Part shown: positions 9,782 through 62,575 of the stretch, piece by piece
Layout of the letters: every line of letters starts with the position of its first letter
How positions within the stretch are numbered: position 1 is the first letter of the stretch
NCBI GenBank assembly: GCA_030038195.1
Contig: JASHPJ010000132.1
Span: forward strand, 23,529-87,528
From: Acidobacteriaceae bacterium
GTDB lineage: Bacteria > Acidobacteriota > Terriglobia > Terriglobales > Acidobacteriaceae
DNA: 64,000 bases
Direction: 5' to 3'
Translations under genes and position numbers: made by a program
The notes under the pieces: generated by a model
Database searches by the model: none
What the model was told of the DNA's origin: nothing
Seen by the model: only the letters and a program-made list of their open reading frames with translations

Positions 9782-11119
9782 ATGACCGAAGAAAGTTCCA
9801 CTCCTCTTGCCACCATTGCTGATATCGGCCGGTATGAAGGCCAGTCCGTCACCCTGCACGGCTGGCTTTATAACCTGCGCGAGTCGGGCAAGCTGCTCTT
9901 TCCCATCTTTCGCGACGGGACGGGGACGATTCAGGGCGTCGCTCATGTGAAAAGCGTGCCTTCTGAGGTCTTTGATGCGCTCAAAGGGCTCACGCAGGAG
10001 TCGAGCGTCATTGTTACGGGAAAAGTGCGCGCGGATAAGCGCGCGCCGGGTGGATACGAGCTCGATGTGGAGAACCTGCAGGTGGTGCACCGGGTTCCGG
10101 AGAGCGATCCGTACCCGATCACGCTCAAGGAGCACGGGGTCGATTTCCTGATGGAGCACCGGCACCTATGGGTGCGTACACCGCGGCAGTCAGCCATCCT
10201 GCGTATCCGCGCGGAGATCATGCGCGCGGCGGCAGAGTACTTTGACCGGAACGGCTTCGTCCGCACCGATCCGCCCATCCTGACGCCGGCGGCCTGCGAG
10301 GGTACCTCGACGCTCTTCCCGGTGGACTACTTCGGCGCCCCGGCGTTTCTCACGCAATCCGGCCAGCTTTATATCGAGTCGACGGCTCTCGCGCTGGGCA
10401 AGGTATACAGCTTCGGACCCACCTTCCGGGCCGAGAAGTCGAAGACGCGTCGGCACTTGACCGAGTTCTGGATGATCGAGCCGGAGGTCGCCTTCATGGA
10501 TCTCGACGGGCTGCTGGAACTGGCCGAGAACTTCCTCTCGCACATTGTGCAGTCGGTGCTGAAGAACTGCGCGGCCGACCTGGCGGTGATCGGGCGGGAT
10601 GCGGAAAAGCTGAGGCACATCGTCCCGCCGTTCCCGCGGCTGCGCTACGACGAGGCGGCCGAGATGCTCAACCAGGCGCACCGGGACGGCCATTTGGAGC
10701 AACCCTTCGAGTACGGCAACGACTTCGGGTCGCCGGACGAAACCTGGCTGAGCGCGCAGTTTGACCGCCCGGTGATGGTGCACCGCTACCCGGCCAACGT
10801 GAAGGCTTTCTACATGGAGCCCGATCCGCAGGACCCGAAGTATGCGCTGTGCGTGGACGTGCTGGCGCCGGAGGGTTACGGCGAGATCATCGGCGGCTCG
10901 CAGCGCGTGTCGAGCTTTGAGCTGCTCAAGAGCCGCATCGAGCACCACAACCTGCCCATCGAGGCTTTCCAGTGGTACCTCGACCTGCGCCGCTACGGCA
11001 GCGTGCCCCACGCAGGCTTCGGCATGGGCATCGAGCGCGCCGTGGCGTGGATCTGCGGCCTGGAGCACGTGCGCGAGACGATTCCCTTCGCGCGCACGCT
11101 GCACAGGATCTATCCCTAG
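9782..11119 (+). CDS. asnS: Asparagine--tRNA ligase
   Basis: OB-fold N-terminus, class II motifs [29 protein letters not shown] and [11 protein letters not shown]. Confidence 0.95.
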
Positions 11120-11188
11120 TACCGTGACTTCGTGGTTTCGTAACCCAATCCACAAGACTTGGGGCACAAATCCACATGGTCACGGTAT
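11119..11188. mobile_element. 70-bp MITE-like element (type C, short form)
   Basis: TIR GTACCGTGAC / GTCACGGTAT (9/10), flanked by TA on both sides. The left TA is part of the asnS TAG stop. A second copy is at 13319. Confidence 0.75.
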
Positions 11189-11334
11189 TAGTTGCCAGTG
11201 GTCGGTGATCCGTTGCCGGCGGGGTTGGGTTCGCGTATCTCAACCTGTGCTGACCGGGACGTTGATACGGCCAGAAAATCTTCTAGTGTTTGCACTGCGT
11301 CCGGATGTATATTCCTCGCAATCTGCCCGGAGGC

Positions 11335-12315
11335 ATGCGAACTATGTTTGGATCCGACGTTCTGGACATCGTCATCGGGATGGTGTTTATTTTCCTGCTG
11401 CTCAGCCTGATCTGTTCAGCGCTGAATGAGTTCATCGAAACCTTGGTGAAAAACCGCGCGCGCGATCTGGAAAGAGGAATCCGCGAGCTGATTGGCGACC
11501 CGAAGGACACAACCAACTTTGTCGACGAAATCTACAACCACGGGCTGGTAAACTCGCTCTTCAAGGGCAAGTACTCACCCACCAGGAAAAGCAATCTGCC
11601 CTCGTACATTCCGTCAGCCAACTTTGCGATGGCGGTGATCGATCTGATCGAGAATCCGCCGACGGCCGGGATCAAGCTGCCCGATAACGTGAAGACAGCC
11701 TATGACATCTTCAAGCGGCAGGCTGCAGGCGATGCGGCCAAGCTGCAGGCCAGCCTGGAAGACTGGTACGATACGGGCATGGACCGGGTTTCCGGCTGGT
11801 ACAAGCGCCGCGCGCAGTGGATTCTGGTGATACTTGGGTTTGCGGTTGCGGTCGCGGTGAATGCCGACGCGATTCTTATCGCTCAAACGCTCTCCAACGA
11901 CGCCACTCTTCGCAAGGGACTGGTGGCCATGGCGCAGGCGAAGGCGAATCAGCCGCCTTCGAGCGTGCCGGCCGTCACGCAACCCGCCACGCAGCCGGCG
12001 AACGGCGCTGGAGGGACAAGCCTGCCTGCAACTGCGACCAGCCCGTCGCTCGGCAGCAACGTGGACCAGATTCAGCAGTATGTTGGGCAACTCAATCAGA
12101 TTGGGGTGCCGTTCGGCTGGCACCCGTCGGCTGCGGCCCAGCGGGAGGGCTTGGTGAAGCATGCCTTCCGCGTGGCTCCGCACGAGGTAAAGCGGCATGG
12201 CATCGGATGGCTGCTGACGGCCCTTGCCATCTCGATGGGCGCGCCCTTCTGGTTCGACCTGCTGGACAAGATCATCTCCGTCCGCACCGCGCTGAAGCCG
12301 CAGACTGAGAATTGA
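11335..12315 (+). CDS. Conserved uncharacterised membrane protein (PSYIP...WYKR...NAD...GAPFWFDLL family)
   Basis: ORF with GGAGG RBS, N-terminal TM helix, central and C-terminal TM segments and a Pro/Ala/Thr-rich linker. Start 11335 or 11344. Confidence 0.75.
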   Translation: MRTMFGSDVLDIVIGMVFIFLLLSLICSALNEFIETLVKNRARDLERGIRELIGDPKDTTNFVDEIYNHGLVNSLFKGKYSPTRKSNLPSYIPSANFAMAVIDLIENPPTAGIKLPDNVKTAYDIFKRQAAGDAAKLQASLEDWYDTGMDRVSGWYKRRAQWILVILGFAVAVAVNADAILIAQTLSNDATLRKGLVAMAQAKANQPPSSVPAVTQPATQPANGAGGTSLPATATSPSLGSNVDQIQQYVGQLNQIGVPFGWHPSAAAQREGLVKHAFRVAPHEVKRHGIGWLLTALAISMGAPFWFDLLDKIISVRTALKPQTEN

Positions 12316-12684
12316 CAGAGGCAGCGAGTCGGCCAGCGAGCGAAGGAACGGGGATAGATACGCTTTTCTGCGCTTGCGATTCGCTGCGATCGATTCGCTG
12401 CGATGTGGACCGGTTCTTTTTCGCGTGCAACTGCGTTCGAGCGAAACCAGAGTGAGTGTGTCCTGTGGAGAGCCGTGCCAGGTTACCGCTGCCTGCCGGT
12501 CGCGCTCACAAGCCATAACCGTATGGTTATGAGCTGTCAAGAGCGACATGCAGGGAATTTCCGGCTTGAATACAGCAGATATTCGTTGCAACAACTTTCT
12601 GCTGGGATGCGGGAATCCTGGGGGAGAGTGTGGAATCCTTAAAAGAGAGTCTTTTCTACTTTTTGAGATCTGCGGAGATTGGTT

Positions 12685-13305: not shown

Positions 13306-13318
13306 GCGAGCGGAGTCA

Positions 13319-13437
13319 GTACCGTGACTTTGTGGTTTCGTAATCCAATCCACAAGACTTGGGTGCCCAGGTCTTCCGCCGTGGCGGACCGCGGCGGATG
13401 AGACCTGGGAAAGCACAAATCCACATGGTCACGGAGC
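13319..13437. mobile_element. 119-bp MITE-like element (type C) carrying a 49-bp REP-like hairpin
   Basis: Collinear with 11119-11188 except for an extra TGCCCAGGTCTTCCGCCGTGGCGGACCGCGGCGGATGAGACCTGGGAAA. Right flank TA, left flank CA. Confidence 0.75.
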
Positions 13438-13483
13438 TAGTGGGGCTTGCGACGTTAGTGAATAGCGGGGTCAGGAGCGTGCT

Positions 13484-13541: not shown

Positions 13542-13565
13542 ATTGTCGTGCCGGGTTGAGTTCCT

Positions 13566-16908: not shown

Positions 16909-17046
16909 GGCGGGTGGCCCAGAGCTTGAAGATGCAAATTGGATCACAAGACAAGGGTGCCCCAGGTCTCGTCCGCCGCGGCGGACGAGACCTGGGGCAC
17001 CCATTTTCGTGCTGGATTGAATGCCTCAAGCCCTGGGCCACCCGCC
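16909..17046. mobile_element. 138-bp inverted-repeat-bounded element (type F) enclosing a perfect 48-bp palindrome
   Basis: Ends GGCGGGTGGCCCAGAGCTTGA / TCAAGCCCTGGGCCACCCGCC (20/21). Internal 16955-17002 is a perfect palindrome. No clear TSD. Confidence 0.7.
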
Positions 17047-21723: not shown

Positions 21724-24384
21724 CTATTCCGTTCGGAGCGCCTGCATGGGGTCCAGGCGCGAGGCGTGCCAGGCGGGAGCCATGCAGGCCAGTGCGGCGA
21801 CAAGCAGCAAGGTTGCGGCGACGGCCGCGAAGACTGCGGGATCGAGCGGCTGCGTCTCGTAGAGCAGGGAGCGGATGAAGCGCGTCGCCGCTGCGCTCGC
21901 GGCGAGTCCGAGGATCAGTCCGAACAAGGCGGGCTGCAGGCCGTCCAACAGCATCAGCCGCAGCACCTGCTCCCGCTGCGCGCCCAGCGCGATGCGGATG
22001 CCGATCTCGCCGGTGCGCTGCGTGGCCAGATACGACAGCACGCCGAACAATCCTACCCCGGCAAGAGCCAGCGAGAGCGCGGCAAAGATGGAAAGAAGGG
22101 TCGCGTCAAAGCTGGCGCCCAGCGTCGACCGGCCTACGATCTCCTCCATCGTGAGGATGTGGCCCACGGCAAGGTCGGCGTCCATCTTCGCGACGATTTT
22201 CTGCACCGGCACGGCATATGCCAGCGGGTCGGTATGTGTGCGGATGGCCAGGAAAGCAAAACTCATATCGCCGCGATAGAGAGGGTAGTAGATCGTCGGC
22301 CGCGGCGGGTCGCCGATGCTCTCACGCACATCGCCTACCACGCCGACGATCTGGAAGCTGTGCGGACCGTCGAAGTTGCCATCGACGATGTGTTTTCCGA
22401 TCGGATCGGCATTGGGAAAGAACTCGTGCACGAATGCCGGCGTAACCACGGCGACTTCGGCATCCTCCAGGCGCTCCGCGGGTTGAAAAAGGCGGCCGCG
22501 GAGTAGCGGAATCCCGAGCGCCTGGAAGAGGCCGGGATCGGTGCTGGGTACGCTCGCGTCAAGAAATTTGCCTTGCGGCAAGGGAGGATTCTCCTGGATT
22601 GTAAAGGCGTCGTCGCGTTGATGCCCTATTCCCGGCAACTCGGTATCCAGGCCAGCGGCTTCGATGCCGGGCAGCGCCCGCACCCGCTCCACAAGCTGCT
22701 CAAAGAAGGCCAGCCGCTGCACCGGAGTGGCATAGCGCGCCTCCGGCAGATCGAGGCTCATGGTCAAAACATCCTTGGTGACGCAGCCCAGATCGACCGA
22801 TCGCAGCCGCTGGTAACTCTTCAGCAGCAGGCCCGCGCAGGCCAGCAGGACCACGGTGAGCGAGACTTCGAGCGCCAGCAGAACGCGGCGCAGACGGACC
22901 TTGCCATGGCTCCCCACGTGGAAGCGCGAAGACTCCCAGAGCGTGTGCAGGATTTGTCCGTCGTGGAATGAAAGGACCGGAACAAGCCCGGTCACGAGTC
23001 CGCAGAGCAAAATGACGCTCACCCCGAAGACCAGGGAGATGCCGTCCGGATGCACCGCGTAGACACGGGGCAGGTCGCCACGCATGTGAACGAGCCATTG
23101 CACGGTGAGCCAGGCGACCAGCAACCCCAGGCCGCCGCCACCCAGTGAAAGCAACGCGCTTTCGACGAGCTGCTCCTGGAACCGGCGCGCGCGGCTTCCT
23201 CCCAGTGCTGCCCGGATGGCGATCTCTTTGCGGCGCGAAGCGATGCGGGCCACGAGCAGGTTGGCGATGTTCAGGCAGGCGATGAAGAGCAGACAGCCGG
23301 TTGCTGCAAAGAGCACATAGATGGCGGTTCGGATTGGGCCGACCTGGGCCTCGAGCATCGGCACCACGGCGGCGGCATCGAAGATCGGCCCGGTGGGAAA
23401 CCGTTTTCGTATGCGCGCCTGGATTGCATCCATCTCCGCCTTGGCCTGCACAAGGGACACCCCGGGCCTGAGCCGCGCCAGCACCTGGAAGTTATGGGCT
23501 CCATGCGCGGTTGTAAGACCGGGCCACGTTTCTTCGTGGTAGACGGGAGTCCAGAGCTGAACCGTGGGGTCGGAATAGGAGAACCAGGATGGAAGAATCC
23601 CAATGACCGTATAAGGCTTGGTGTCCAGAAAAACAGTGCTGCCTACAACATGAGGGTCCGCCCCGTAGCGGCGCTCCCAAAGACCCCAGGTAAGAACAAC
23701 CGTCGCATTCGCGCCGGCCGCATCGTCGCCGGCGGTAAACAGGCGTCCGAGAGCCGGCTGTACGCCCAGCATGGGAAACAGGTTCCAGCTCGTTTGCTGC
23801 ACGGCGATCTGTTCCGGAAGCTGGCCAGCCGAGCCCGAGAGGTTGATGTCGTAGCCACTCGTGGTCAGCAATGCCATCTGTTCGAAGCTGTGTTGCTGCC
23901 TCTGCCAGTCAAAGAAATCCGCGCCGGAGACGGCCACACGGTTGTGAACCGGGTTGTGCGCATCGGCTTCGTAGATGCGCACCAGCCGGTCGGGGTCCTT
24001 GAACGGCAGCGGCTTGAGCAGCACGCCGCGCACCACTGTAAACAGCGCTACATTCGAGCCTATGCCGAGGGCCATGATTCCAATAGCGATGAAGGTAAAT
24101 CCGGGCGCGCGGCCGAGCGTGCGCATGCCGATGCGCAGGTCGCGCAGCAGCGATTCGAGACCGTTCCAGCTCCAGGCGGCGCGGGCCTGGTCGCGCAGCA
24201 GCGCCGGGTTGCCGAAGGCGCGCAGCGCGGCGTAGCGGGCTTGGTCTGCGCTCATGCCGGCGGCGCGATTCTCTTCGATCTGGCGGTCGAGGTGGAAGCG
24301 CAGCTCGGCGTCGAGCTGTGCGCCGGCTTTGCGCCGCATGAAGAGCGTGCGGAGTTTCATACCGAGTTGATGGAACCTGAGCAT
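21724..24384 (-). CDS. ADOP-family duplicated orphan ABC permease (MacB/FtsX-like), copy 1
   Basis: N-terminal ELRFHL...A.YAALRAFG prefix, two MacB-periplasmic/FtsX repeats, RRKEIAIRAALG, EIGIRIALGA, ASRLDPMQALR. No ATPase domain. Confidence 0.92.
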   Translation of the reverse strand: MLRFHQLGMKLRTLFMRRKAGAQLDAELRFHLDRQIEENRAAGMSADQARYAALRAFGNPALLRDQARAAWSWNGLESLLRDLRIGMRTLGRAPGFTFIAIGIMALGIGSNVALFTVVRGVLLKPLPFKDPDRLVRIYEADAHNPVHNRVAVSGADFFDWQRQQHSFEQMALLTTSGYDINLSGSAGQLPEQIAVQQTSWNLFPMLGVQPALGRLFTAGDDAAGANATVVLTWGLWERRYGADPHVVGSTVFLDTKPYTVIGILPSWFSYSDPTVQLWTPVYHEETWPGLTTAHGAHNFQVLARLRPGVSLVQAKAEMDAIQARIRKRFPTGPIFDAAAVVPMLEAQVGPIRTAIYVLFAATGCLLFIACLNIANLLVARIASRRKEIAIRAALGGSRARRFQEQLVESALLSLGGGGLGLLVAWLTVQWLVHMRGDLPRVYAVHPDGISLVFGVSVILLCGLVTGLVPVLSFHDGQILHTLWESSRFHVGSHGKVRLRRVLLALEVSLTVVLLACAGLLLKSYQRLRSVDLGCVTKDVLTMSLDLPEARYATPVQRLAFFEQLVERVRALPGIEAAGLDTELPGIGHQRDDAFTIQENPPLPQGKFLDASVPSTDPGLFQALGIPLLRGRLFQPAERLEDAEVAVVTPAFVHEFFPNADPIGKHIVDGNFDGPHSFQIVGVVGDVRESIGDPPRPTIYYPLYRGDMSFAFLAIRTHTDPLAYAVPVQKIVAKMDADLAVGHILTMEEIVGRSTLGASFDATLLSIFAALSLALAGVGLFGVLSYLATQRTGEIGIRIALGAQREQVLRLMLLDGLQPALFGLILGLAASAAATRFIRSLLYETQPLDPAVFAAVAATLLLVAALACMAPAWHASRLDPMQALRTE

Positions 24385-24393
24385 CGGTGTCTC

Positions 24394-27054
24394 CTATTCC
24401 ATTCGGAGCGCCTGCATGGGGTCGAGGCGCGAGGCGCGCCATGCCGGGGCCATGCAGGCCAGCGCGGCGACAAGCAGCAAGGTTGCGGCGACGGCCGCGA
24501 AGACTGCGAGATCGAGCGGCTGCGTCTCGTAGAGCATCGAGTGGATGAGGCGCACGGTAACGGTGCTGGCGGCGAGGCCGAGCGCAAGGCCGATCAGTGC
24601 GGGGCGCAGTCCGTCGGCGAGCATGAGGCGCAGCACCTGCTCGCGCTGCGCGCCGAGCGCGATGCGAATGCCGATCTCGCTGGTACGCTGCGCAGCGATG
24701 TACGAGAGTACGCCGAAGAGGCCCGCAGCGGCCAGCAGCAGCGACAACGCAGCGAATCCTGTGAGCAGCGTGGTATTAAAGCTCTCATCGAGCGTGGATT
24801 TGCCGAGGAGCTGATCCATGGTAAGAACGTCAGAGACGGGCAGATCGTGGTCCATACCCTGAATTACATGCTGTACAGGGAGCGCCAGTTGCTCCACGTC
24901 ATGGCTGGAGCGGATGACGAGCGTCCCGTTGTTCGTGTCGCCTGCATAGAGCGGGTAATACTGCGTGGGCTCGGGCGTCTCGCCGAGGTCATAGCGCGTG
25001 TCGCCCACAACGCCGACGATGAGATGCAACTCTTTTCCGCCCATCACATGCAAGTGCTTGCCGACGGGATCTTCGCCGGGAAAGAATTTTCTCGCGAACG
25101 ACTCGCTGATGATCGCCTCATTGGCGCGGTCGAGTGTCTGGCCGTCGTCGAAGGTATGGCCACGCAGGATGGGAATGCCCATCGCTGCGAAGTAGCCGGG
25201 ATCGGCCGAGCGGTTGATTGCGAATGTGCCTTTGCCGCGCGGCAACGGCGGATGCTCGGCGATGGTGAATCCCATGTCACCCATGTATCCCTGCCCCGGA
25301 ACGGCAGTCACAAATCCGGCGGCCTCGACGCCCGGCAGCGCTCGCACACGCTCCAGCAAGGTTGCAAAGAAGTTGACGGGAGCCGGTCCGGGTGTTTTGT
25401 AGCGCGCGCCTGGCAGGTCAATGTGCAGGGTAAGAATGTTTTTCGTGGTGCAACCGATATCGGTATCGCGCAGCCGCTGGTAGCTCTTGAGCAGCAGGCC
25501 CGCGGCAATCAGCAACATCACCGTAAGACCGACCTCAGCCGCAAGAAGCGTCTTGCGCAGGCGTGCTCGCGCACTGCCCGCACTGTGCGACTTCGAGCTC
25601 TCGTGCAGCGATGCGAGCAGGCGTTTGCCGTCAGCGTTCAGCGCAGAGACAAGACCTGAGAAAAGCGCGCAGAGAACGATGACGCCCAAGGTGAAGGTGG
25701 CGACAACACCGTCCAGATGGATGGATCCTACGCGCGCCATATTGCGGCGCGTGGCCACGAACCAGTGAACAGCCTCCCAGGCCAGCGCCAGGCCGGCCGC
25801 GCCGCCCGCGGCTGAGAGAAGAAAGCTTTCCATCAGGTGCTCGCGCAGCAGACGTAGCCGTCCGCCGCCCAGCGCGGTGCGAATGGCGAGCTCTTTACGG
25901 CGCGCCGCAGCCCGCGCAACGAGAAGGTTCGCAACGTTCAGGCATGCGATGAGGAGCAGGCATGCGGTAGCCGCGAGCATCACGTAAAGCGGGCGCTCGA
26001 CATCGCCCACTATATGCTCAATCAGCGGCCGGCTGTTTGCCGCTGCGGCAATAAACGGGTCGTCCAATTGAGATTCGTGAAGCCGCCGCGAGATGATACT
26101 TAAGTTCGCCGTTGCTTCCTCTGCCGTCACTCTGGGCTTCAGCCGGCCCACTGCACGAAAATTATGGAAGTCGAGGTGCGACATGATTGTTGTCGGCATC
26201 TCGTGATATACGGGCAGCCAGAGTTGTGTAGTAGAATCCGGGAACTCGAACCACTCGGGCATGACGCCGATCACCGTGTACGGCTTGGCATCAAGATAGA
26301 TAATGCGGTCGAGGATAGCCGGATCACTCCCAAAGCGGCGTTTCCACAAATTCCAGCTCAACACGACTGTGCCATTTGCAGTCAGGCTATCGTCGGCGGC
26401 CGCAAAACCGCGCCCCAGCGCTGGCTGTACTCCGAGCGTCGGGAACAGGTTCCAGGAGACAGTCCCGCTATTGAGTGTCTCCGGCAGTTGACCGCCAGAC
26501 GCCGAAAGATCCACCTGGTCGTTGCGGACGAGAGCCATGCTGCTGAACGTGGTATTTTCTTTGTTCCACGCGTCGAAGACGCCGCCGGCGACAAGGTTGT
26601 ACGGAAAGTCTCCGCCGCCGGCCGAATACGTACTGTGCTCGTAAAGCATCAGCAGCCGATCGGAATTTTCAAACGGCAGCGGCTTGAGCAGCACGCCGCG
26701 CACCACTGTAAACAGCGCTACATTCGAGCCTATGCCGAGGGCCATGATTCCAATAGCGATGAAGGTAAATCCGGGTGCGCGGCCGAGCGTGCGCATGCCG
26801 ATGCGCAGGTCGCGCAGCAGCGATTCGAGGCCGTTCCAGCTCCAGGCGGCGCGGGTCTGGTCGCGCAGCAGCGCCGGGTTGCCGAAGGCGCGCAGCGCGG
26901 CGTAGCGGGCTTGGTCTGCGCTCATGCCGGCGGCGCGATTCTCTTCGATCTGGCGGTCGAGGTGGAAGCGCAGCTCGGCGTCGAGCTGTGCGCCGGCTTT
27001 GCGCCGCATGAAGAGCGTGCGGAGTTTCATACCGAGTTGATGAAGACGGCGCAT
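24394..27054 (-). CDS. ADOP-family duplicated orphan ABC permease, copy 2
   Basis: Same architecture and length (886 aa) as copy 1. Directly downstream of padR. Confidence 0.92.
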   Translation of the reverse strand: MRRLHQLGMKLRTLFMRRKAGAQLDAELRFHLDRQIEENRAAGMSADQARYAALRAFGNPALLRDQTRAAWSWNGLESLLRDLRIGMRTLGRAPGFTFIAIGIMALGIGSNVALFTVVRGVLLKPLPFENSDRLLMLYEHSTYSAGGGDFPYNLVAGGVFDAWNKENTTFSSMALVRNDQVDLSASGGQLPETLNSGTVSWNLFPTLGVQPALGRGFAAADDSLTANGTVVLSWNLWKRRFGSDPAILDRIIYLDAKPYTVIGVMPEWFEFPDSTTQLWLPVYHEMPTTIMSHLDFHNFRAVGRLKPRVTAEEATANLSIISRRLHESQLDDPFIAAAANSRPLIEHIVGDVERPLYVMLAATACLLLIACLNVANLLVARAAARRKELAIRTALGGGRLRLLREHLMESFLLSAAGGAAGLALAWEAVHWFVATRRNMARVGSIHLDGVVATFTLGVIVLCALFSGLVSALNADGKRLLASLHESSKSHSAGSARARLRKTLLAAEVGLTVMLLIAAGLLLKSYQRLRDTDIGCTTKNILTLHIDLPGARYKTPGPAPVNFFATLLERVRALPGVEAAGFVTAVPGQGYMGDMGFTIAEHPPLPRGKGTFAINRSADPGYFAAMGIPILRGHTFDDGQTLDRANEAIISESFARKFFPGEDPVGKHLHVMGGKELHLIVGVVGDTRYDLGETPEPTQYYPLYAGDTNNGTLVIRSSHDVEQLALPVQHVIQGMDHDLPVSDVLTMDQLLGKSTLDESFNTTLLTGFAALSLLLAAAGLFGVLSYIAAQRTSEIGIRIALGAQREQVLRLMLADGLRPALIGLALGLAASTVTVRLIHSMLYETQPLDLAVFAAVAATLLLVAALACMAPAWRASRLDPMQALRME

Positions 27055-27666: not shown

Positions 27667-28374
27667 ATGGTGAATGCGCCGATTCGAGTGATCACCGTAG
27701 AGCGGGAGTACGGGTCGCGCGGCGGGGAATTTGCGCACAACCTGGCAGAGCGGCTGGGATGGCGGCTGCTGGACTCAGAGCTGGTGGCGGGCGCGGCGCG
27801 CGTGGCGGGCGTGGACCCCAAGCTGGCGGAGCGGTTCGACGAACGGCTCGATCCCTGGTACTACCGCTACGGAAAGCTCTTCTTTCAGGATTCTTCGTAT
27901 TCCATGCTGAGCAACTCGGAGGATTTTCTGTTCGACTCCGAACGGATGCTGGGGCTGATCCGGCAGGAGATTCTGGACGCGGCCAAAGAGGGCAACTGCG
28001 TGCTGGTAGGGCGCGGGGCAGCCTGCGCGCTGGCGGGGCAGCCGGGGTGCTTTCACATCTTTGTGTACGCCACGATGCGGGCCAAGCGCGACTGGTTCAG
28101 GAAGGCCTTTCCCAAGCAGGCGCACAACGCAGAGCAGCATCTGGCCGCATTCGACAAGCGGCGCGCGGCGGTGATCCGCAGGTTTTATCAGCAGGACTGG
28201 TGCGCACGCGGAATGTATCACATGCTGCTGAACTCATGCATCGGGATCGACTCGATGATTGCCGCGGTGCAATGCGCGGCGGGGCTGGGCGTGCCGGAGG
28301 TGGTGAGTGCGCCGGGGAGCTGCCCGGAGGAGCTGAAGCCGGAAGAGATGCAGGGCGGGCCGGCGGTTCTCTAG
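27667..28374 (+). CDS. Cytidylate kinase-like family protein
   Basis: VITVEREYGSRGGE P-loop-like motif, CVLVGRGA, DKRRAA and YHMLLNS. Confidence 0.85.
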   Translation: MVNAPIRVITVEREYGSRGGEFAHNLAERLGWRLLDSELVAGAARVAGVDPKLAERFDERLDPWYYRYGKLFFQDSSYSMLSNSEDFLFDSERMLGLIRQEILDAAKEGNCVLVGRGAACALAGQPGCFHIFVYATMRAKRDWFRKAFPKQAHNAEQHLAAFDKRRAAVIRRFYQQDWCARGMYHMLLNSCIGIDSMIAAVQCAAGLGVPEVVSAPGSCPEELKPEEMQGGPAVL

Positions 28375-28545
28375 GCTGTATCGACATATAAGCGAGCAGA
28401 AAATAAAGGGCTTGTCATCCTGAGCGAAGCAGGTGCGATTTTTTGCACCTGTGGAGTCGAAGGATCTGCGGTTGCTTTCCGTCATTCCCCGCGTACTACG
28501 CCCGATTTCCAGCCTTTCTTGCCAAGCCTATATGTCGATACGGCC
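28374..28545. mobile_element. 172-bp MITE-like element (type G) carrying a GTCATCCTGAGCGA REP (28412-28474)
   Basis: TIR GGCTGTATCGACATATAAGC / GCCTATATGTCGATACGGCC (18/20), TA on both flanks. The left TA is within the upstream TAG stop. Confidence 0.82.
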
Positions 28546-28548
28546 TAA

Positions 28549-28796
28549 GAACTTGTTTAAAAACTCTTCAGAGCAAGGCAAGAGCTTTCAAGGGGCACGG
28601 CTTTATTGATTGCTGCATAAAGAATGTCCGGTTGTCATCTTGAGCGAAGTCCTGTGCAGTCCGCCGCGGCGGAGAGTCGCAGGTCAAAGATCCGCCGTGG
28701 CGGAATCTGCGGTTGCCTTTCTCATGGCACAGGACATTCCATTTGCGGGAGTCAATAGCCGTGCCCTTTCAGAACATCAGGTTTTTAGACAGGCTC
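28549..28796. mobile_element. MITE-like element type A (96-bp unit) interrupted by a 150-bp nested element
   Basis: Ends GAACTTGTTTAAAAAC / GGTTTTTAGACAGGCTC, TAA on both flanks. After removing the insert it aligns over 96 bp (~87%) with the reverse complement of 49547-49642. Confidence 0.85.
28606..28755. mobile_element. 150-bp nested MITE-like element (type B) carrying a REP (28631-28715)
   Basis: Duplicated TA (28604-05, 28756-57) in the loop of the host hairpin GCACGGCTTTAGCCGTGC. Imperfect TIR TTGATTGC...GAATGTCC / GGACATTC...GAGTCAA. Confidence 0.75.
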
Positions 28797-29995
28797 TAAA
28801 CCGGTCTGCGCGGGACGCGCGGTGCGATGCGCGTAAAGATCTCCCAGGGGATGGTGCCCGCGGCGCGGGCGTGATCGAAGGCGGTGATGGTCTGTCCGCC
28901 CTGGGTTCCCAGGATCACAACTTCATCGCCAGGCTGGACGCCGGGAACCCCGGTGACGTCGAGGACAGCCTGGTCCATGCTGACGCGGCCGACGAGCGGA
29001 GCACGTGCGCCGTGGACGAGCAGGCTGAAGCGGTTGCCGAGGCTGCGGGTGAGGCCGTCGCCATAGCCGGCGGCGATGAGCGCCAGGCGCATGGGCTCAG
29101 AGGCGACAAAGGTTCCGTTGTAGCCGACGACGGCTCCGGCAGGGACGGAGCGGACGCCGACCACCTGGGTCTTCCAACTGAGAACGGGCTGGAGATGCGT
29201 GCGGGCGGCGGCGAGCGACGCGGGCTCAGCGGATGCGAAGTCCGGGTTGAATTCGGGAACGAGACCGTAGAGCGCGAAGCCGGGACGGAGCAGGGCCTTC
29301 ATGCCGTGGTGCGCGGCGAGGTCGGCGATGGCGCGCGCCTGGCCCGCCAGAAGCGCGGCGGAGTTACCCACGTTGAGCCACTCGCCGAAGAGGCCGGCCG
29401 ACGAGATGCGGCCGAGGGTTTCGTCCAGGCGGTCGAGCTGCGCGGCGGTAACGCGGCCGTCGGCCTCGTCGGCAGCGAAGAGATGGGTCATGATGCCTTC
29501 AAGCCGGAAGGGCGACGCAGGCGAGATGTGGGCGAGGAGGACAGGGAGGGTTGTGGGGCTTGCGCCCTGGCGGCTCATGCCGGTGTCGATCTCGAGATGA
29601 ATGGGCAGAGAGCCCGGCGCGAGTCCGGCGGCGTGCGCGGCGGCTTCGAGCTGGTCGAGATGCCAGGGTTCCCAGGCAACGGGTGTAAGCCGGTGAGCGA
29701 GCAGTGCAGCAGCCTGGCCGGGAAAGACGCCGGCGATGACCAGAATCTGCGCGGCGGGGCAGAGTGCGCGGGCGACGATGCCCTCTTCCACGCTGGTGAC
29801 CCCGAGCCATTGCGCGCCAGCGCGGACGACGGCCGGCGCGCAGTGGGCGAGGGAGTGGCCGTAGGCGTCAGCCTTGACGATGGCCAGAAGCTCGGCGTGC
29901 GGCGCGGCCAGGTTGGCGAGAAAACGATAGTTGTCCTCTAGTGTGCGGGTGCGGATTTCGACCCGGCAGGGACGGGTTGGCATCGAGCTGTCCAA
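28796..29995 (-). CDS. alr: Alanine racemase
   Basis: AIVKADAYGH PLP lysine, HLEIDTGMSRQG, RPGFALYG, GYGDG and GRVSMDQ. Alternative ATG start at 29983. Confidence 0.95.
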   Translation of the reverse strand: MDSSMPTRPCRVEIRTRTLEDNYRFLANLAAPHAELLAIVKADAYGHSLAHCAPAVVRAGAQWLGVTSVEEGIVARALCPAAQILVIAGVFPGQAAALLAHRLTPVAWEPWHLDQLEAAAHAAGLAPGSLPIHLEIDTGMSRQGASPTTLPVLLAHISPASPFRLEGIMTHLFAADEADGRVTAAQLDRLDETLGRISSAGLFGEWLNVGNSAALLAGQARAIADLAAHHGMKALLRPGFALYGLVPEFNPDFASAEPASLAAARTHLQPVLSWKTQVVGVRSVPAGAVVGYNGTFVASEPMRLALIAAGYGDGLTRSLGNRFSLLVHGARAPLVGRVSMDQAVLDVTGVPGVQPGDEVVILGTQGGQTITAFDHARAAGTIPWEIFTRIAPRVPRRPV

Positions 29996-30770: not shown

Positions 30771-33700
30771 TCAATCCCCGTGCGCCTCTTCGAGCTCAGC
30801 GCCAATGCGGCGCAGCTTCATGAACCTCCACTGCAGCCTGTCGAAGAACAGGTACACCACCGGCGTGGTAAACAGCGTGAGCGCCTGCGACACCAGCAGC
30901 CCGCCCACGATCGCGATGCCCAGCGGCTTGCGCAGCTCCGAGCCGACGCCCATGCCGATAGCCAGCGGCAGCCCGCCAAACATGGCTGCCATCGTGGTCA
31001 TCATGATGGGCCGGAAGCGCAGCAGCGACGCCTCATAGATCGCCTCCACCGGCGGCAATCCCTGGTCGCGCTCGGCCTGCAGCGCAAAGTCGATCATTAA
31101 AATTGCGTTTTTCTTGACGATGCCGATCAGCAGAATAATGCCGATCAGCGCGATGATGCTCAGTTCAGTGCCGGTGAGCAGCAGCGCCAGAATGGCGCCC
31201 GCGCCGGCCGGCGGCAGTGTGGAGAGAATCGTGAGCGGATGAATCAGGCTCTCGTACAGGATGCCCAGCACGATGTAGACTGCAACAATCGCCGACAGGA
31301 TCAACCACTTCTCGTTGCGCAGCGACTCCTGATAGGCCTGCGCGGTTCCCTGAAAGGTGGCGTGCACGCTCGACGGCATGCCCAGGTCCTGCTGTACCTT
31401 TTCGAGCGCGGTCACGGCATTGCCCAGCGCCACGTTGGGAGCGAGATTGAAGGTGAGCGTCACCGCCGGATACTGCCCCTGGTGGTTCACCTGCAGCGAG
31501 GTGCGCTGATTCTCGAAGTGCGCAATCGCCGAGAGCGGCACCATGGCGCCCGTCGACGACTTGATAAAGATTCCGTTCAGCGAGTCCGGGCTGCGCTGAA
31601 AGGCCGGATCGACCTCCATTACCACGTAATACTGGTTGAGCGCGGTGTACATCGTGGAAACTTCGCGCTGGCCAAAGGCGTCGTAGAGCACCTGGTCGAT
31701 ATCCTGTGCGCTGATGCCCAGCCGCGACGCCGTATCGCGGTCGATGACAAGATTTGCCGCCAGCCCCTGATCTTGCTGATCGGTAGAGACGTCGCGCAGT
31801 TCCGGCATCTTCATGGCGCGGTCCAGCAGTTGCGGGGCCCACTGGTTCAGCTCCTTGAGATCTTCGTCCGACAGCGTGTACTGGTACTGCGCCGAGCTGC
31901 CGCGTGCGCCGATCTGGATATCCTGCTGCGCCTGCAGGAACAGCGTCGCGCCCGGCACGCTGGTGAGCTTGCTGCGCAGGCGGTTCACCACGTCGTCAGA
32001 GGAGACGCGCCCGGGCCGCTCGCTCAGCGGCTTGAGCGCAAGCCACATGCGGCCCACGTTGTTGCTGCCGCCGCCCGGGCCGCCGCCGCCCGCAAATCCA
32101 TTCACGGTCTGCACGGCCGGATCGTCGAGCGCAATCTGCGCCAGCAGCCGCTGCTTGGCCATCATCGCGTCGAAGCTGATGTCTTGCGCGCCGATGGCCT
32201 GCCCGCTGATGCGTCCCGTGTCCTGCTGCGGAAAGAAGCCTTTGGGCACGATGAGAAAGAGATAGACGTTCAAGGCGGCGATGCTTACCGTTACGCCAAG
32301 CATGAACGCCTGGTGGCGCAGCACCCAGCGCAGCGCCGCCGCATACTCGCCATGCAGCCACTCGAAGGCCCGCTCGCTGGCGCGATAGAGCGCGCCGTGT
32401 CCGCTCTCGTCGCGAGGCTTCAGGAAGCGCGCGCAGAGCATGGGCGTGGTGGTGAGCGAAATCAGCAGCGAAGCGGCAATGGCCACCGAAAGCGTAACGG
32501 CAAATTCGCGGAAGAGCTTGCCCACGATGCCGCCCATGAGCAGAATCGGGGTGAACACCGCAATCAGCGATGTGCTCATCGAGAGCACCGTGAATCCGAT
32601 CTCCTTCGAGCCCTTCATCGCCGCGTCGAAGGGTTTCATGCCCATCTCGAGATAGCGGGTGATGTTCTCGATCACCACGATCGCATCGTCCACCACGAAT
32701 CCCGTGGAAATGGTGAGTGCCATCAGGGACAGGTTGTCGATGCTGTAGCCTAGCAGCGACATCACCCCAAACGTGCCCACCAGCGAGAGCGGCACGGCGA
32801 TCGACGGAATAATGGTGGCCCACACCTCGCGTAGAAACAGGAAGACCACCAGTACCACCAGCAGCACGCTGATCATGAGCGTGATCTCCACATCGCGCAC
32901 GCCGGCGCGGATGGTCACCGTGCGGTCGCTCACCACGTCGATCTTGATGGTGGGCGGAATCGAGGCCTGCAGGTGCGGCATCTCCGCCATCAGCCGGTCC
33001 ACGGTTGAGATCACGTTCGCTCCGGGACTCTTGAAGATGAAGAGCATGATCGCGTCCGTGATCTTGCCCGGTGGTCCCTCATCGGGATTGATGCCGGCCA
33101 CGCCGCCGGTCAGGATGTTGGAGACGCTGTCGGTCACTTCGCCCAGGTCCGTAATCCGCACCGGCGCGCCGGTCGTGCGGTTATAGCCGGCGATGATCGG
33201 CGCGTAATCGCTGGCCTTGAAGATCTGGTCGTTGTCGGTGATCGCCCAGCGATGGGTCGCATCCTGAAACGCGCCCTTGGGACGGTTGGCGTTGGCGTTG
33301 GCGAGCGCCGTGCGCACGGCTTCAAGGCCCACGCCGTTGTTGCCGAGCTGCATGGGGTTCAGCTCCACGCGCACCGCGGGACTGGCGCTGCCGCCTACGA
33401 ACACCTGCCCCACTCCCTGCACCTGCGACATCTTCTGCGCCAGGATCGAGTCAGCCATATCGTAGATCACCGGCTTCGGCACCACGTCCGAGGTCAGCGT
33501 CATGATCAGGATGGGCGCGTCGGCCGGATTGGCCTTGCGGTAGCTCGGATTCTGCGGCAGATAGGCAGGCAACTGGCTGCGGGCCGCGTTGATGGCCGCC
33601 TGCACATCGCGCGCCGCCGCGTCGATGTTGCGGTTGATGTCGAACTGCAGGTTGACCGACGCCGTGCCCAGCGCGCTGGACGAGGTCATCTGGTTCACGC

Positions 33701-42253: not shown

Positions 42254-43462
42254 ATGAACCTCGACGCGATCCAGTCCGCCCTGCGCGACTCCAACCTCGA
42301 CGGCTGGCTCTTCTACGATCACCATCACCGCGATCCCATCGCCGCGCGCATCCTGGGCCTCGATCCCAAGGCGCACATCACCCGGCGCTGGTATTACTTC
42401 ATTCCCGCCAGCGGCGAGCCGCGCAAGCTCGCGCACCGCGTGGAGCGGGGCCGGCTGGACGCGCTGCCCGGCGCGAAGACACTCTACTCAAGCTGGCAGG
42501 AGCTGCATGCAGGCATCGAGACAATGCTCGTTGGCGCGCGGCGCATCGCCATGCAGTACTCGCCCAACAACGACATCATGTACGTATCGATGGTCGATGC
42601 GGGCACGGTCGAGTTCCTGCGCTCGCTCGGCAAGCAGATCGTGAGCTCCGCCGATCTGGTCAGCCAGTTCGAGGCCGTGCTGAGCGCAGGCCAGGTGGCC
42701 AGCCACGCCGCCGCACAGCAGGCCATCGATGCCATCCTGGCCGAGGGCTGGAAGGAGATGGGCCGGCGGGTGCGGCCGGGCACGGCCAGCGTATCCGAGT
42801 ACGACATGGTGGTCTGGCTCAGAGAGGCCATGCGCCGCGAGGGCCTGGTGTGGGAGAGCGGCCCCAACGTGAGCGCCAACGCCAACAGCTCCGACTCGCA
42901 CTACGAGCCGGCAGCCGAAAAATCCGCGCCCATCCGCGAAGGCGACTTTGTGCTCATCGACATCTGGGGCCGCCAGGATTCGAATCGTGATCCGAATCAT
43001 GACCCGAATACCGATTCGCCCGGCACTATCTTTTACGACATCACCTGGACCGGCGTCGTAGGTCGCGAGCCCTCCGCGCGCGAGCAGCAGGTCTTCGAGA
43101 CCGTGCGCAACGCGCGTGACGCGGCTATTGCCGCCGTCGAGTCCGCCTTCGCAGAGGGCCGCCCGATTTGCGGCTTCGAGGCCGACGACGCGGCCCGCGC
43201 CGTGATTCGCGCCGCCGGCTTTGGCGAATCTTTCACGCACCGCACGGGGCATAATATCGCGCAGGAGCTGCACGGCAACGGCGCGCACCTCGACAACCTC
43301 GAGACCCACGACGACCGGCGCATCCTGCCCAACACCTGCTTCTCCGTCGAGCCCGGCATCTACCTGCCCGAGTTTGGTGTGCGCAGCGAAGTGAATATGC
43401 TTACTGTTCCCGGCAAAGCCTGGGTGACCGGAAAGATTCAGCGGGAGCTGGTGAGGATTTAG
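42254..43462 (+). CDS. M24-family (Xaa-Pro) aminopeptidase
   Basis: Metal ligands in LIDIWG...YDITWT, HRTGH, SVEPGIY and RSE. Confidence 0.9.
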   Translation: MNLDAIQSALRDSNLDGWLFYDHHHRDPIAARILGLDPKAHITRRWYYFIPASGEPRKLAHRVERGRLDALPGAKTLYSSWQELHAGIETMLVGARRIAMQYSPNNDIMYVSMVDAGTVEFLRSLGKQIVSSADLVSQFEAVLSAGQVASHAAAQQAIDAILAEGWKEMGRRVRPGTASVSEYDMVVWLREAMRREGLVWESGPNVSANANSSDSHYEPAAEKSAPIREGDFVLIDIWGRQDSNRDPNHDPNTDSPGTIFYDITWTGVVGREPSAREQQVFETVRNARDAAIAAVESAFAEGRPICGFEADDAARAVIRAAGFGESFTHRTGHNIAQELHGNGAHLDNLETHDDRRILPNTCFSVEPGIYLPEFGVRSEVNMLTVPGKAWVTGKIQRELVRI

Positions 43463-43575
43463 AGCAGTTCCAGGGTTGCTCTATCCCGGAGCCGTTGCGG
43501 TGGAGTGGTTTTTTCTCTCAAGAAAAAAGCCGCCTTGCTCGATGGCAAAAGGGCACACAAACTCTGGAACTGCTC
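43462..43575. mobile_element. 114-bp MITE-like element (type E, uninterrupted)
   Basis: TIR GAGCAGTTCCAGGGTT / AACTCTGGAACTGCTC (15/16). Left flank TA is within the TAG stop; right flank is not TA. Collinear with the reverse complement of the outer element at 55262-55530. Confidence 0.72.
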
Positions 43576-49546: not shown

Positions 49547-49642
49547 GAACCTGTTTAAAAACTTGATGTTTTGAAAGGGCACGGCTTTAGCCGTGCCCTT
49601 TCAAGGCGCTTGCCTTGCTTTGAAGAGTTTTTAAACAGGTTC
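49547..49642. mobile_element. 96-bp MITE-like element (type A) with internal REP hairpin
   Basis: Perfect 17-bp TIR GAACCTGTTTAAAAACT, TCA on both flanks (right TCA is the hemerythrin TGA stop), internal palindrome GAAAGGGCACGGCTTTAGCCGTGCCCTTTC. Confidence 0.88.
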
Positions 49643-55261: not shown

Positions 55262-55530
55262 GAGCGGTTCCACAGCTCGTGTAACCCTTTCCGGCTGCTA
55301 GAGCAATTTCACAGATGATGTACTCCATCTCGAATCAGAAAAACAACCGCAGATCCTTCGACTCCCTCGCGCTTTCCCTCATTGCATGAGGGAAAACACT
55401 TGGTCGCTCAGGATGACAACGCGATGAAAGAGTACAGCAACTCTGAAAATGCTATAGCGAGATGGCTTTTTCTTGTTGAAAAAGCCACTTAGCTCCCCGG
55501 CTCCGGAGTACAGCAACTGTGAAACCGCTG
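55262..55530. mobile_element. Type E MITE-like element (outer) interrupted by a related element
   Basis: TIR GAGCGGTTCCACAGCTCGTGTA / TACAGCAACTGTGAAACCGCTG (17/22), TA flanks, internal TGGCTTTTTC...GAAAAAGCCA hairpin. Homologous to 43462-43575. Confidence 0.78.
55301..55454. mobile_element. Inner MITE-like element with type E ends carrying a GTCATCCTGAGCGA REP (55344-55420, minus)
   Basis: TIR GAGCAATTTCACAGATGATGTACTC / GAGTACAGCAACTCTGAAAATGCTA (20/25), TA duplicated at 55299-300 and 55455-56. Confidence 0.78.
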
Positions 55531-58616: not shown

Positions 58617-58626
58617 AAACAGGACC

Positions 58627-60465: not shown

Positions 60466-60613
60466 GGCCGCGCGTTGCGGATGGCTGGTAGAATAAAAAC
60501 TGCCGCACTGCGCGGTTTCTGGCTGTTTTTTGAGTCTTTTCCGCATCCTGAACGCAGTCCCATGACTGGACCATGACCGGAACGGTCAAACCCGAAGAAG
60601 GAACTTTGCAGCC

Positions 60614-62434
60614 GTGAGCACGACGATACGCAACATCGCCATCATTGCCCATGTTGACCATGGAAAGACCACGCTGGTCGACGCCCTGCTGCGCCAGGCC
60701 GGAACGTTTCGCGCCAACGAGCAGGTAGCCGAGCGGGTGATGGACTCGAACGAGCTGGAGCGCGAGCGCGGCATTACGATCCTGGCCAAGAACACCGCGA
60801 TCCACTACGGCGGCGGCAAAATCAATATCGTCGACACGCCGGGCCACGCCGATTTTGGCGGTGAAGTGGAGCGCGCGCTCAAGATGGTGGATGGCGTGAT
60901 GCTGCTGGTGGACGCGGCCGAAGGGCCGCTGCCGCAGACGCGCTACGTCTTGTCGAAGGCGCTGGAAGCCAGGCTGCCGCCCATCGTGGTCATCAACAAG
61001 ATCGACCGTCCGGATGCGCGCCCACAGGAGGTGCTGAACGAGATTTACGATCTTTTCATCGATCTCGACGCCGACGAGCATCAGCTCGAGTTTCCCGTGC
61101 TCTACGCGGTGGCCAAGGCCGGCACTGCCACCACCGATCCGGCCACGCCGGGCACCGATCTGCAGCCGCTCTTCGAGGCGATTGTGAACACCATCCCCGC
61201 GGCCACCGGCGATGCGGAGGGCGCGCTGCAGATCCTGGTCACGAATCTCGACTACTCGGATTACTTTGGCCGCATCGCCATCTGCCGCGTCTTTCAGGGC
61301 ACGTTGCGCGTCGGCGACGAGGCGAATATTTCGCGGCGCGACGGCTCTCTCTACAAGACAAAGATCACCAAGCTGTTCACCTTCTCGGGCCTCAAGCGTA
61401 TCGAGACCACGGCAACGGAGATGGGCGACATTGTGGCCGTTGCCGGCGTGGAAGGCATCACGATTGGCGAGACCATCACCGGCGTGGAGAATCCGGCGCC
61501 GCTGCCGCTGATCGTCATCGACGAGCCGACCATCGCCATCCAGTTCAACGTGAACAACTCGCCGTTTGCGGGCCGCGAGGGCCAGTACGTCACCAGCCGC
61601 AACCTGCGCGAGCGGCTTGAAAAAGAGCTGCTCACCAACGTGTCGATCCGCGTGGAAGAGACCGGCTCGCCGGACAGCTTCAAGGTACTGGGCCGCGGCG
61701 AGCTGCAGCTTGCGATCCTGATCGAGATGATGCGCCGCGAGGGCTACGAGCTGATGGCCGGCCGGCCCGAGATTGTGACGCGCATGGTGGACGGCGTGCG
61801 CATGGAGCCGGTGGAGCATCTCACCATCGACGTGCCGGAGACTTACACGGGCGTGGTGATTGAAAAGCTCGGCCCGCGCAAGGGCGAGATGACCAGGATG
61901 CACAATCACGGCTCAGGCCGCGTGCGCCTGGAGTTTCGCGTGCCCAGCCGCGGCCTCATCGGCCTGCGCAGCGAGATGCTCACCGAGACGCGCGGCACCA
62001 TCGTGATGAACTCGCTCTTCGACGGCTACATCCCCTACCAGGGCGAGATTCCGCAGCGGCCCACGGGCGCGCTTATCGCTGACCGTCAGGGCGTGACCAC
62101 CACCTACTCGCTCAACGGCCTGCAGGAGCGCGGCATTCTCTTCGTGGGCCCGGGCGTGGAAGTGTACGAGGGCATGATCGTGGGCGAGCACTCGCGCGAC
62201 AACGACCTGGACGTAAACGTGGTGCGCGAAAAGAAGATGACCAATATGCGCGCGTCCACGGCGGACGAGGCGATTCGCCTGGTGCCTTATACCACGCTGA
62301 ATCTCGAGCAAGCCATCGAGTTCATCGCCGACGACGAGTTTGTCGAGGTGACGCCCAAGTCGCTGCGCCTGCGCAAGAAGATTCTACAGGCCAACAAACG
62401 GCCCAAGCGGTGGGAGAAGGCGCTAGCTGAGTAA
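60614..62434 (+). CDS. typA: Translational GTPase TypA/BipA
   Basis: [39 protein letters not shown] and [11 protein letters not shown]. Confidence 0.97.
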
Positions 62435-62440
62435 CCCTAG

Positions 62441-62575
62441 AGTCCTGTCTCTAAATTTCGCATCGTAAATGTGTTGTCTTCCTGGGCAAGCAGACCGCGT
62501 TTTTGTGGTCTGCGCAGTCGAAGAACCTGCGGTTCGGTTGCTCCAACATATGCCACGGACTTTGGGGACAGGACT
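62441..62575. mobile_element. 135-bp MITE-like element (type D) carrying a degenerate GTCATCCTGAGCGA-family REP (62473-62534)
   Basis: CTAG on both flanks (62437-40, 62576-79), TIR AGTCCTGTCTCTAAA / TTTGGGGACAGGACT (13/15). Confidence 0.8.

Follow-up and report, generated by a model that had tools for sequence, protein, structure and literature searches.

Introduction

Mosaic repeat arrays are known from several bacterial groups, as bacterial interspersed mosaic elements (BIMEs) in enterobacteria, neisserial intergenic mosaic elements (NIMEs/dRS3) and Correia elements in Neisseria, and BOX elements in pneumococcus. Insertion sequences (IS) that insert into the hairpins of repetitive extragenic palindromes (REPs) are known as well, including IS1397, ISKpn1 and elements of the IS110/IS1111 type, and this behavior is said to have been treated by Tobes and Pareja in 2006. 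Systems that link REPs and REPINs to REP-associated tyrosine transposases (RAYTs) were reportedly described by Nunvar in 2010, Bertels and Rainey in 2011, and Ton-Hoang in 2012. Another association, between GIY-YIG single-strand nucleases of the Ssn family and the NTS/SRM hairpin repeats, has been published together with an SRM search motif, HGTCWYN(0-2)YYVSBRHN(0-5)WNVSBRGN(0-2)RNCYNB (Chenal et al., Nat Commun 2025, PMC11893778); how the cognate repeats reach hundreds of copies, and the role of Ssn enzymes outside Neisseria, were left open in that work. Here, these systems are compared with a group of short composite elements in a 64,000-nucleotide stretch of DNA from a member of the Acidobacteriaceae (contig C66:23529-87528; hereafter, the window), part of a draft genome of 4.17 Mb in 153 contigs with a G+C content of 61.7%. 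In several of these elements, transposable elements of the miniature inverted-repeat type (MITEs) form shells around one of two hairpin repeats, R1 and R2.

A first-pass annotation of the window had listed eleven such elements, assigned them to at least six unrelated inverted-repeat types, and proposed that REP hairpins are coupled to DDE-type MITEs. Every one of the eleven was located again with the same coordinates, ends and flanks, and genome-wide blastn searches showed that all of them belong to multi-copy families, none being single-copy: about 128 matches were obtained for A, 105 for B, 69 for F, 29-57 for E, 18-49 for C, 33 for G (4 full length) and 14 for D, the latter with the diverged window copy as query. 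Six types remain (A, B, C, D, E, and G), since F was dropped, as explained below, and E shares one terminus type with the nested element E-inner. A further family, H (CTAG|GTCTCTGACCGCATGA..), whose target is CTAG, occurs elsewhere in the genome.

The R2 repeat and its shells

R2 is an oriented module of the form yT-GTCATCCTGAGCGA-[variable hairpin]-GAGTCGAAGG-(TCGAAGA TCCGCCGTGGCGGGA)0-2-A(C/T)CTGCGGTTGyTTTT. The genome contains 111 strict copies, 106 of them intergenic, and exact-pattern matches in public genomes fall within the Acidobacteriaceae, mainly in Terracidiphilus and also in Edaphobacter and Granulicella. The 34 specified bases that flank the module's insert recur unchanged at more than 120 loci of other Acidobacteriaceae. 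The insert itself is diverse, 103 distinct versions being counted among 122 copies, and most of these fold (mean -9.8 kcal/mol, compared with -4.4 kcal/mol for shuffles). Flanks that remain fixed across genera while the stem varies point to recognition by a protein.

Clustering of the sequences that flank R2 revealed repeated arms around 99 of the 111 copies (89%). These arms are of type D in 56-64 copies, of type B in 11, of type E-inner in 8-9, and of type G or a G-like family in approximately 7-11. Outside the shells, four copies flank GIY-YIG genes and about eight are isolated, indicating that R2 exists independently of any shell. The first-pass annotation had placed the same repeat in G, B, E-inner, and D. 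Indeed, the core occurs in at least four unrelated shells and the consensus of family D carries an exact GTCATCCTGAGCGA motif, whereas the window copy of D is degenerate (GTTGTCTTCCTGGGCAAG), leaving G, B (1 mismatch), and E-inner (minus strand) as the sites of the three exact or near-exact occurrences of the motif in the window.

The comparison of cargo inside and outside shells gave different outcomes for the two repeats. The coupling proposed earlier holds for R2, with 99 of 111 copies inside, but only about 6 of 47 R1 units lie in shells. Moreover, the enrichment of R2 at the level of copies mostly reflects co-amplification of a few founders. At the level of families, R2 was found in 5-6 of about ten inverted-repeat families and R1 in two, far more than expected from chance placement in approximately 1-2% of the spacer DNA, a count that is biased by the survivorship of successful families.

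By type of spacer, R2 occupies 8 divergent, 35 convergent and 53 co-directional intergenic regions, its rarity in divergent spacers being as expected of tolerated insertions. Its orientation relative to flanking genes shows no bias (30 same, 23 opposite), and solo copies lie between two tracts, one A-rich and the other TTGCTTTT. For R2, Rfam yielded nothing that passed the gathering threshold anywhere in the window, and positions 28350-28800 remained without a match even with E values up to 10; with no such match and no orientation bias, a hammerhead-like RNA, a k-turn or another known RNA was rejected as an identity for R2. Nothing relevant on the R2 sequence, or on GIY-YIG combined with RAYT or MITE, came up in the literature searched.

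A 12-nt palindrome, CCGCCGYGGCGG, occurs 210 times in the genome (164 intergenic), compared with 3-20 occurrences of composition-matched control palindromes, and in nearly all cases caps a longer hairpin, examples being the loops of R1, the hairpins of R2, and further stems. In the window it is found at 13384-13409, 16974-16985, 28661-28672, and 28694-28705. Some truncated D copies (C73:36382, C130:5830, and also C99:58659) stop at the same point of R2, directly after GTCATCCT, and this break point could mark an in vivo break or cut site of the GIY-YIG nuclease described next.

R2 copies bracket a GIY-YIG gene

The clustering of R2 flanks also showed that two solo copies are followed by paralogous gene starts, which belong to a GIY-YIG gene that this genome carries just twice, at C7:1567-1902 and C39:18002-18337. 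The encoded protein has 112 amino acids and GIY-YIG as its sole structural domain (residues 6-77; Pfam GIY-YIG, E = 1e-12), with a weak overlapping match to T5orf172; it has no NCBIfam match and no sequence relative in the PDB. Upstream of both genes, at a distance of about 90 nt, lies an R2 in forward orientation, and about 65 nt downstream follows one in reverse orientation. The same inverted pair surrounds the gene in three complete loci of other species (L105, L019, and L036), and a further locus, L006, which is cut by its end, has the upstream R2 only. Among metagenomic homologues (59-82% identity), restricted to the 70 loci with at least 200 nt on both sides and against a background of 28 motifs in 90 kb, R2 was found on both sides in 41 and on at least one side in 63, with the forward copy located between -63 and -189 and the reverse one between +23 and +202. 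The GIY-YIG gene of locus L036 is followed downstream by three R2 units in reverse orientation, arrayed in tandem with a period of 86 nt (approximately 1500-1760), and its reading frame extends into the first of them.

Thus, the GTCATCCTGAGCGA repeat is linked to the gene of a small GIY-YIG nuclease and not to an HUH enzyme, and the earlier view of a REP cargo spread by RAYT/TnpA proteins is not supported for it. The head of R2, TGTCAT, and its tail, ATCTGC, fit the two ends of the published SRM motif, and only those parts do. On the basis of these sequence likenesses and by analogy with the Ssn enzymes, R2 is treated here as a divergent, expanded variant of the SRM that would work alike.

R1 is the REP of a RAYT

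The second repeat, R1, has a hairpin of the form GGGTGCCCCAGGTCT..loop..AGACCTGGGAAAGCAC and is found in the window elements C2 and F. A RAYT gene at C153:25147-25674 (NCBIfam NF047646, REP-associated tyrosine transposase, 92.4 bits with a cut-off of 80; Pfam Y1_Tnp) is bracketed by an inverted pair of R1 units at C153:25065 (+) and 25679 (-), and within 1.2 kb of it are three more units. R1 is the REP of this RAYT, an HUH tyrosine transposase. The anticipated arrangement of a RAYT or TnpA gene flanked by cargo hairpins was therefore found for R1, while the R2 pairs surround GIY-YIG genes instead; the cargo comprises two systems rather than the single REP class assumed at first. RAYT homologues are present in 56 of 61 sampled genera of Acidobacteriaceae, a count that includes the unpublished genomes G032 and G055.

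The genome has 47 R1 units, 37 of them intergenic, including four symmetric doublets, one of which is the window element F. Only the units in families C and H, about 6 of the 47, sit inside inverted-repeat shells, the other 41 or so being free. The loops of 13 of the 47 hairpins contain mini-palindromes. Family C occurs in three variants, with the full hairpin, with a hairpin that has CCGCCGYGGCGG in its loop, or with the hairpin deleted and the flank bases kept (GGGTGC joined to TGGGAAAGCAC); window element C1 is a further deletion within this family. Because the R1 flank bases are kept, the hairpinless copies are deletions and not empty sites. F had been presented as an inverted-repeat shell element, but its supposed shell (GGCGGGTGGCCC..TTGA..CACGAAAATG) belongs to the R1 REP unit as its extended arm and recurs beside the RAYT gene. 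As it also lacks DDE-type ends and a target duplication, F is not a DDE shell.

Three hybrid elements (C27:24888, C60:14665, and C112:30606) combine a family C left arm with a family H right arm, joined at the common R1 core. A second Y1_Tnp gene, on contig C112, was considered as a partner of R1 or R2 and rejected, as it belongs to an IS200-like element that is frameshifted and flanked by unrelated hairpins of its own, and has no link to either repeat; its TnpA lies at C112:12430-12793, with the frameshift at a G run.

Shells and resident insertion sequences

As the first-pass annotation had stated, the window itself has no transposase: none of its 48 predicted proteins contains a transposase, HUH or GIY-YIG domain, and genome-wide Pfam searches with PF01797, PF01609, and PF13358 gave no match inside it. 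Elsewhere in the genome, the same searches detected transposase fragments of the DDE_Tnp_1 and DDE_3 types. Most of these lie where contigs end, as is typical of IS whose many copies interrupt assembly from short reads. An IS5-like element with a DDE_Tnp_1 (PF01609) transposase, present in at least 10 copies, has at least 11 left and 8 right ends at contig ends, all CTAG-flanked, and is often placed precisely at a terminus of another MITE. Its end, GGCGTATCCACATATAG, matches both ends of G (19/24 each), and copies of G are preceded by CTA and followed by TAR, the same CTAG target. IS630-like ends accompanied by DDE_3 (PF13358), found at three contig starts (C152, C137, and C17), read GAGCATTTTC.. 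or ..CGAAAATGCTC followed by TA; they match E-inner at 18-19/25 and E1 at 15/25. The end of a third resident IS (..GTTTTTGAAACACGCTC followed by TAA) matches A at 16/23. Families G, C, D, and H use CTAG as target, A uses TNA, and E, E-inner, and B use TA. These data support the identification, already made in the first-pass annotation and valid except for F, of most shells as DDE-type MITEs with TA, TNA or CTAG targets, with partner IS elsewhere in the genome. The search for full-length IS with the same ends had a mixed result, as resident IS ends match G and resemble E/E-inner and A, but none match B, C or D and full copies are not readable. Indeed, inverted end pairs 400-3000 bp apart with D, B, C or E ends were not found in this assembly, which breaks at every IS.

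CTAG is strongly under-represented in the genome (observed/expected 0.12; 1,694 sites). About half of the sites lie in the approximately 17% of the DNA that is non-coding, and at least 121 are at recognized element termini. The abutting and nesting of elements would follow from target sites that are rare and are regenerated by each insertion. At least 6 of 11 copies of B, including the one at the center of A1, are placed in the TTTA loop of a G+C-rich hairpin, a preference that may instead reflect longer B termini (GGGGCTTTA..).

The spacer that contains G, A1 and B (28374-28796, between a cytidylate-kinase-like gene and alanine racemase) measures 420 bp here and approximately 0-195 bp in the congeners examined, so the block of G plus A interrupted by B is inserted DNA. 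The flanking genes of these congeners are only 70-78% identical, so that the comparison is one of spacer lengths and not of precise empty sites. In one congener, the stop codons of the two convergent genes overlap in a CTAG.

Origin of the composite elements

The explanation that we favor, with a rough probability of 0.62, is that non-autonomous DDE-type MITEs carry two enzyme-linked cargo repeats as a result of single captures, co-amplification, and recombination between cores. The MITEs would be mobilized in trans by the IS5-like and IS630-like elements present elsewhere in many copies, R1 being the REP of the RAYT and R2 probably an expanded NTS/SRM-like repeat of a putative Ssn-type single-domain GIY-YIG nuclease. 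We infer that the core was acquired once per MITE family, in a founder copy, after which DDE transposition would multiply shell and core jointly. As CTAG is nearly absent from the genome and clusters at gene ends and MITE termini, new insertions would go to the rare sites near older elements and pile up beside or inside them, giving rise to nested arrays. Finally, the common R2 cores would provide patches of homology that allow families to exchange hairpin variants and entire arms. In agreement with this last step, copies within each of B, D, and G contain between 0 and 2 of the 21-nt units, and identical hairpin variants occur in different shells; hairpin variants are common to D, G, E-inner, and solo copies; and chimeric arms were found in the combinations E-inner-left/D-right, D-left/G-right (at least 3 copies), and C-left/H-right. 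Recombination at the shared core explains both core variation and chimeras most simply, repeated homing being the alternative.

According to that alternative, the enzymes belonging to R1, R2, and CCGCCGYGGCGG (the RAYT and the GIY-YIG nuclease) inserted these sequences where palindromes are extruded and their loops single-stranded. Palindromic MITEs would then be preferred landing sites, which cores entered independently and repeatedly in several families. We consider this unlikely. In its favor, cores sit at the exact center of every palindromic shell, mini-palindromes occupy the loops of the 13 R1 hairpins and of most R2 hairpins, B, D, G, and solo copies contain none, one or two units of about 21 nt (GAAGA plus hairpin) at one and the same place in R2, and the same hairpin variants recur across different shells, a recurrence for which recombination between cores accounts equally well. 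However, homing into MITEs, one of the two routes considered at the outset, is not supported, as there is no empty shell among the approximately 150 arms of family D, all of which lead into R2 or truncated R2; the hairpinless C copies, which keep their R1 flanks, are deletions. Furthermore, copies within the young families E-inner and G are uniform (97-99% identical), core included, and Ssn enzymes have so far been shown only to cut, not to join (PMC11893778). A stronger form of the same idea, in which R2 and the GIY-YIG gene constitute a self-propagating single-strand-DNA element, a GIY-YIG counterpart of REP/RAYT whose nuclease inserts or copies R2 into hairpin tips, including MITE centers, appears quite unlikely to us. 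If true, piggy-backing on DDE MITEs would be a general, so far unrecognized route by which Ssn-type repeats reach hundreds of copies.

Two other explanations would dispense with separate captures or with transposition as the main cause. Descent of all R2-bearing families from one ancient R2 element, namely D, with ends later replaced by recombination or by flanking IS, would account for the chimeras, which exist in several copies, and for the D-type arms that R2 has in several further genomes of the Acidobacteriaceae (22 of the 121 copies sampled, a rough comparison because the sample excludes R2 forms with an extra unit). It is distinctly improbable, as B, E-inner, G, and D have nothing in common in their sub-terminal sequences outside R2, solo copies and the pairs at GIY-YIG genes exist, and most R2 copies in other species are solo. 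Selection for hairpin cores as bidirectional terminators or mRNA stabilizers at gene ends, where MITEs with cores would merely be tolerated, seems very improbable. The scarcity of R2 in divergent spacers, the A-rich and TTGCTTTT tracts around solo copies, and the elements that abut or supply stop codons are in line with such a role, but R2 has neither an orientation bias with respect to transcription nor an Rfam match, the constancy of its 34 flank bases across genera beside a variable stem speaks for protein recognition, and its tie to the GIY-YIG gene would be left unexplained.

Returning to single capture followed by co-amplification, several observations weigh against it. The invariably central position of R2 in palindromic shells, with CCGCCGYGGCGG at hairpin tips, also fits insertion into single-stranded loops. 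No IS partner was found for the ends of D, B, C or H in a draft assembly that is broken at every IS, and neither a transposition event nor a filled/empty polymorphic site within the species was seen, the congeners being only 70-78% identical in the flanking genes. None of the 111 R2 copies matches the SRM search motif, because of their 30-80-nt insert, and the whole genome has 26 matches to the motif, compared with 48-54 in shuffles. In addition, the intergenic counts are approximate, since the gene map comes from a home-made open reading frame caller (83% coding). Taken together, the elements are real transposon relics, and the results suggest that repeats can spread by riding inside other mobile DNA.

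Anatomy of the window elements and gene content

The two family C elements illustrate the loss and retention of the R1 core. C1 (11119-11188, 70 bp) has the ends GTACCGTGAC and GTCACGGTAT and a TA/TA duplication inside CTAG/TTAG, its central R1 hairpin being deleted; its first base completes the TAG stop codon of an Asn/Asp-tRNA-synthetase-like gene (9782-11119). C2 (13319-13437, 119 bp) has decayed flanks (CA/TA), and its center (13361-13416) is an R1 unit, GGGTGCCCAGGTCT..AGACCTGGGAAAGCAC, with CCGCCGYGGCGG mini-palindromes in the loop. The REPIN-like palindrome F (16909-17046, 138 bp) consists of two inverted extended R1 units, GGCGGGTGGCCC..CACGAAAATGGGTGCCCCAGGTCTCG, without target duplication; its R1 hairpin lies at 16955-17002, and blastn gives a reverse match of F to itself at 82%.

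G (28374-28545, 172 bp, plus strand) is flanked by TA inside CTAG/CTAA, its ends matching the resident IS5-like element at 19/24, and was inserted in a CTAG that contains the stop codon of the gene at 27667-28374. Its R2 core (28414-28480, plus strand) comprises GTCATCCTGAGCGA, then the hairpin CAGGTGCGATTTTTTGCACCTG, then GAGTCGAAGGATCTGCGGTTGC. Next to it, the palindromic MITE A1 (28549-28796; family A, TAA/TAA duplication) has its central TTTA loop interrupted by B (28606-28755, 150 bp, plus strand; ends TTGATTGC.. and ..GAGTCAA, flanks TA/TA), which holds an R2 core at 28634-28721 with two CCGCCGYGGCGG hairpins. The intact family A palindrome A2 (49547-49642, 96 bp) has a TCA/TCA duplication and ends that resemble the third resident IS (16/23).

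E1 (43462-43575, 114 bp; family E) has the end GAGCAGTTCC.., which matches the IS630-like end at 15/25, and decayed flanks (TA/CC); it carries its own terminator-like hairpin, GGTTTTTTCTCTCAAGAAAAAAGCC, and neither R1 nor R2. E2 (55262-55530, TA/TA), of the same family, is interrupted by E-inner (55301-55454, 154 bp, minus strand), which is flanked by TA/TA, has ends matching the IS630-like end at 18-19/25, and contains an R2 core on the minus strand (55338-55417). E-inner has 8 genomic copies with 97-99% identity, most of them flanked by TA on both sides. D (62440-62576, plus strand) is a diverged copy of the largest family (consensus CTAG followed by TGTCCTGTCTCTGAAGTTC..), with TA inside CTAG on both sides and a degenerate R2 core at 62473-62537.

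The elements are placed between housekeeping genes, and the 48 predicted proteins of the window are ordinary, including a tRNA synthetase, RND and MacB-type efflux pairs, two-component systems, and BipA. The stop codons of three genes (11117-11119, 28372-28374, and 43460-43462) share bases with the TA/CTAG target or with the first base of the neighboring MITE, so that at these three gene ends the MITEs are flush with coding sequence. Two pairs of tandem paralogues, one of MacB/FtsX-type permeases (2 x 886 amino acids, with stretches up to 95% identical) and one of AcrB-type RND pumps (1051 and 1039 amino acids), occupy positions 21724-27054 and 30771-37045. A thiamine pyrophosphate (TPP) riboswitch (Rfam RF00059, 67 bits) lies at 4620-4715 on the minus strand, upstream of a TonB-dependent receptor gene (2210-4555).

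Comparison with known systems

Like BIMEs, NIMEs/dRS3, Correia, and BOX elements, the elements described here are modular, with conserved end modules and variable internal units, and like those arrays they cluster at gene ends and form hot spots of recombination and insertion. They differ in that the modules lie within true transposon ends with target duplications and an identifiable partner IS. In this group of soil bacteria, elements of this type account for most of the long spacers as well as for many points at which assemblies break. IS that insert into REP hairpins have parallels in the placement of B in TTTA hairpin loops and of the IS5-like element at MITE termini; here, however, the relationship is mostly the reverse, the hairpin repeat being inside the transposon relic.

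R1 conforms to REP/REPIN-RAYT systems in being an imperfect palindrome of about 40 nt with asymmetric flanks that is mostly extragenic, in the position of the RAYT gene between inverted copies, and in the two-unit inverted doublet F, which is REPIN-like. Unlike in those systems, a minority of R1 units form the center of CTAG-flanked MITEs (families C and H), and R1 loops often contain a second, smaller palindrome. The presence of a classical REP/RAYT system in the same genome makes a side-by-side comparison with R2 possible.

The closest counterpart of R2 is the Ssn system, with which it has in common a single-domain GIY-YIG protein of about 100 amino acids, inverted repeat copies around the gene, and a repeat that occurs about 100 or more times in the genome, almost always extragenically. 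R2 is also oriented and follows the NTS frame H-GTC-AT[stem ... stem]AT-C-Y-R, which reads TGTCATCC...GGATCTG in R2 and CGTCATTCCCGCG.MAV.GCGGGAATCYRG in NTS. In contrast to NTS, R2 has 30-80 nt between the stem halves, comprising a conserved GAGCGA and GAGTCGAA, a hairpin that is free to vary, and 0-2 units of GAAGA plus CCGCCGYGGCGG. It thus represents an expanded, previously unlisted repeat form tied to a nuclease gene in Acidobacteriaceae, and suggests that searches with the published motif miss whole lineages of such repeats. A further difference, absent from the description of the Ssn family (PMC11893778), is that 89% of the R2 copies lie inside DDE-type MITEs; nine tenths of a repeat placed in relics with at least four unrelated end types point to a concrete way in which such repeats may spread, by hitch-hiking on DDE transposition.

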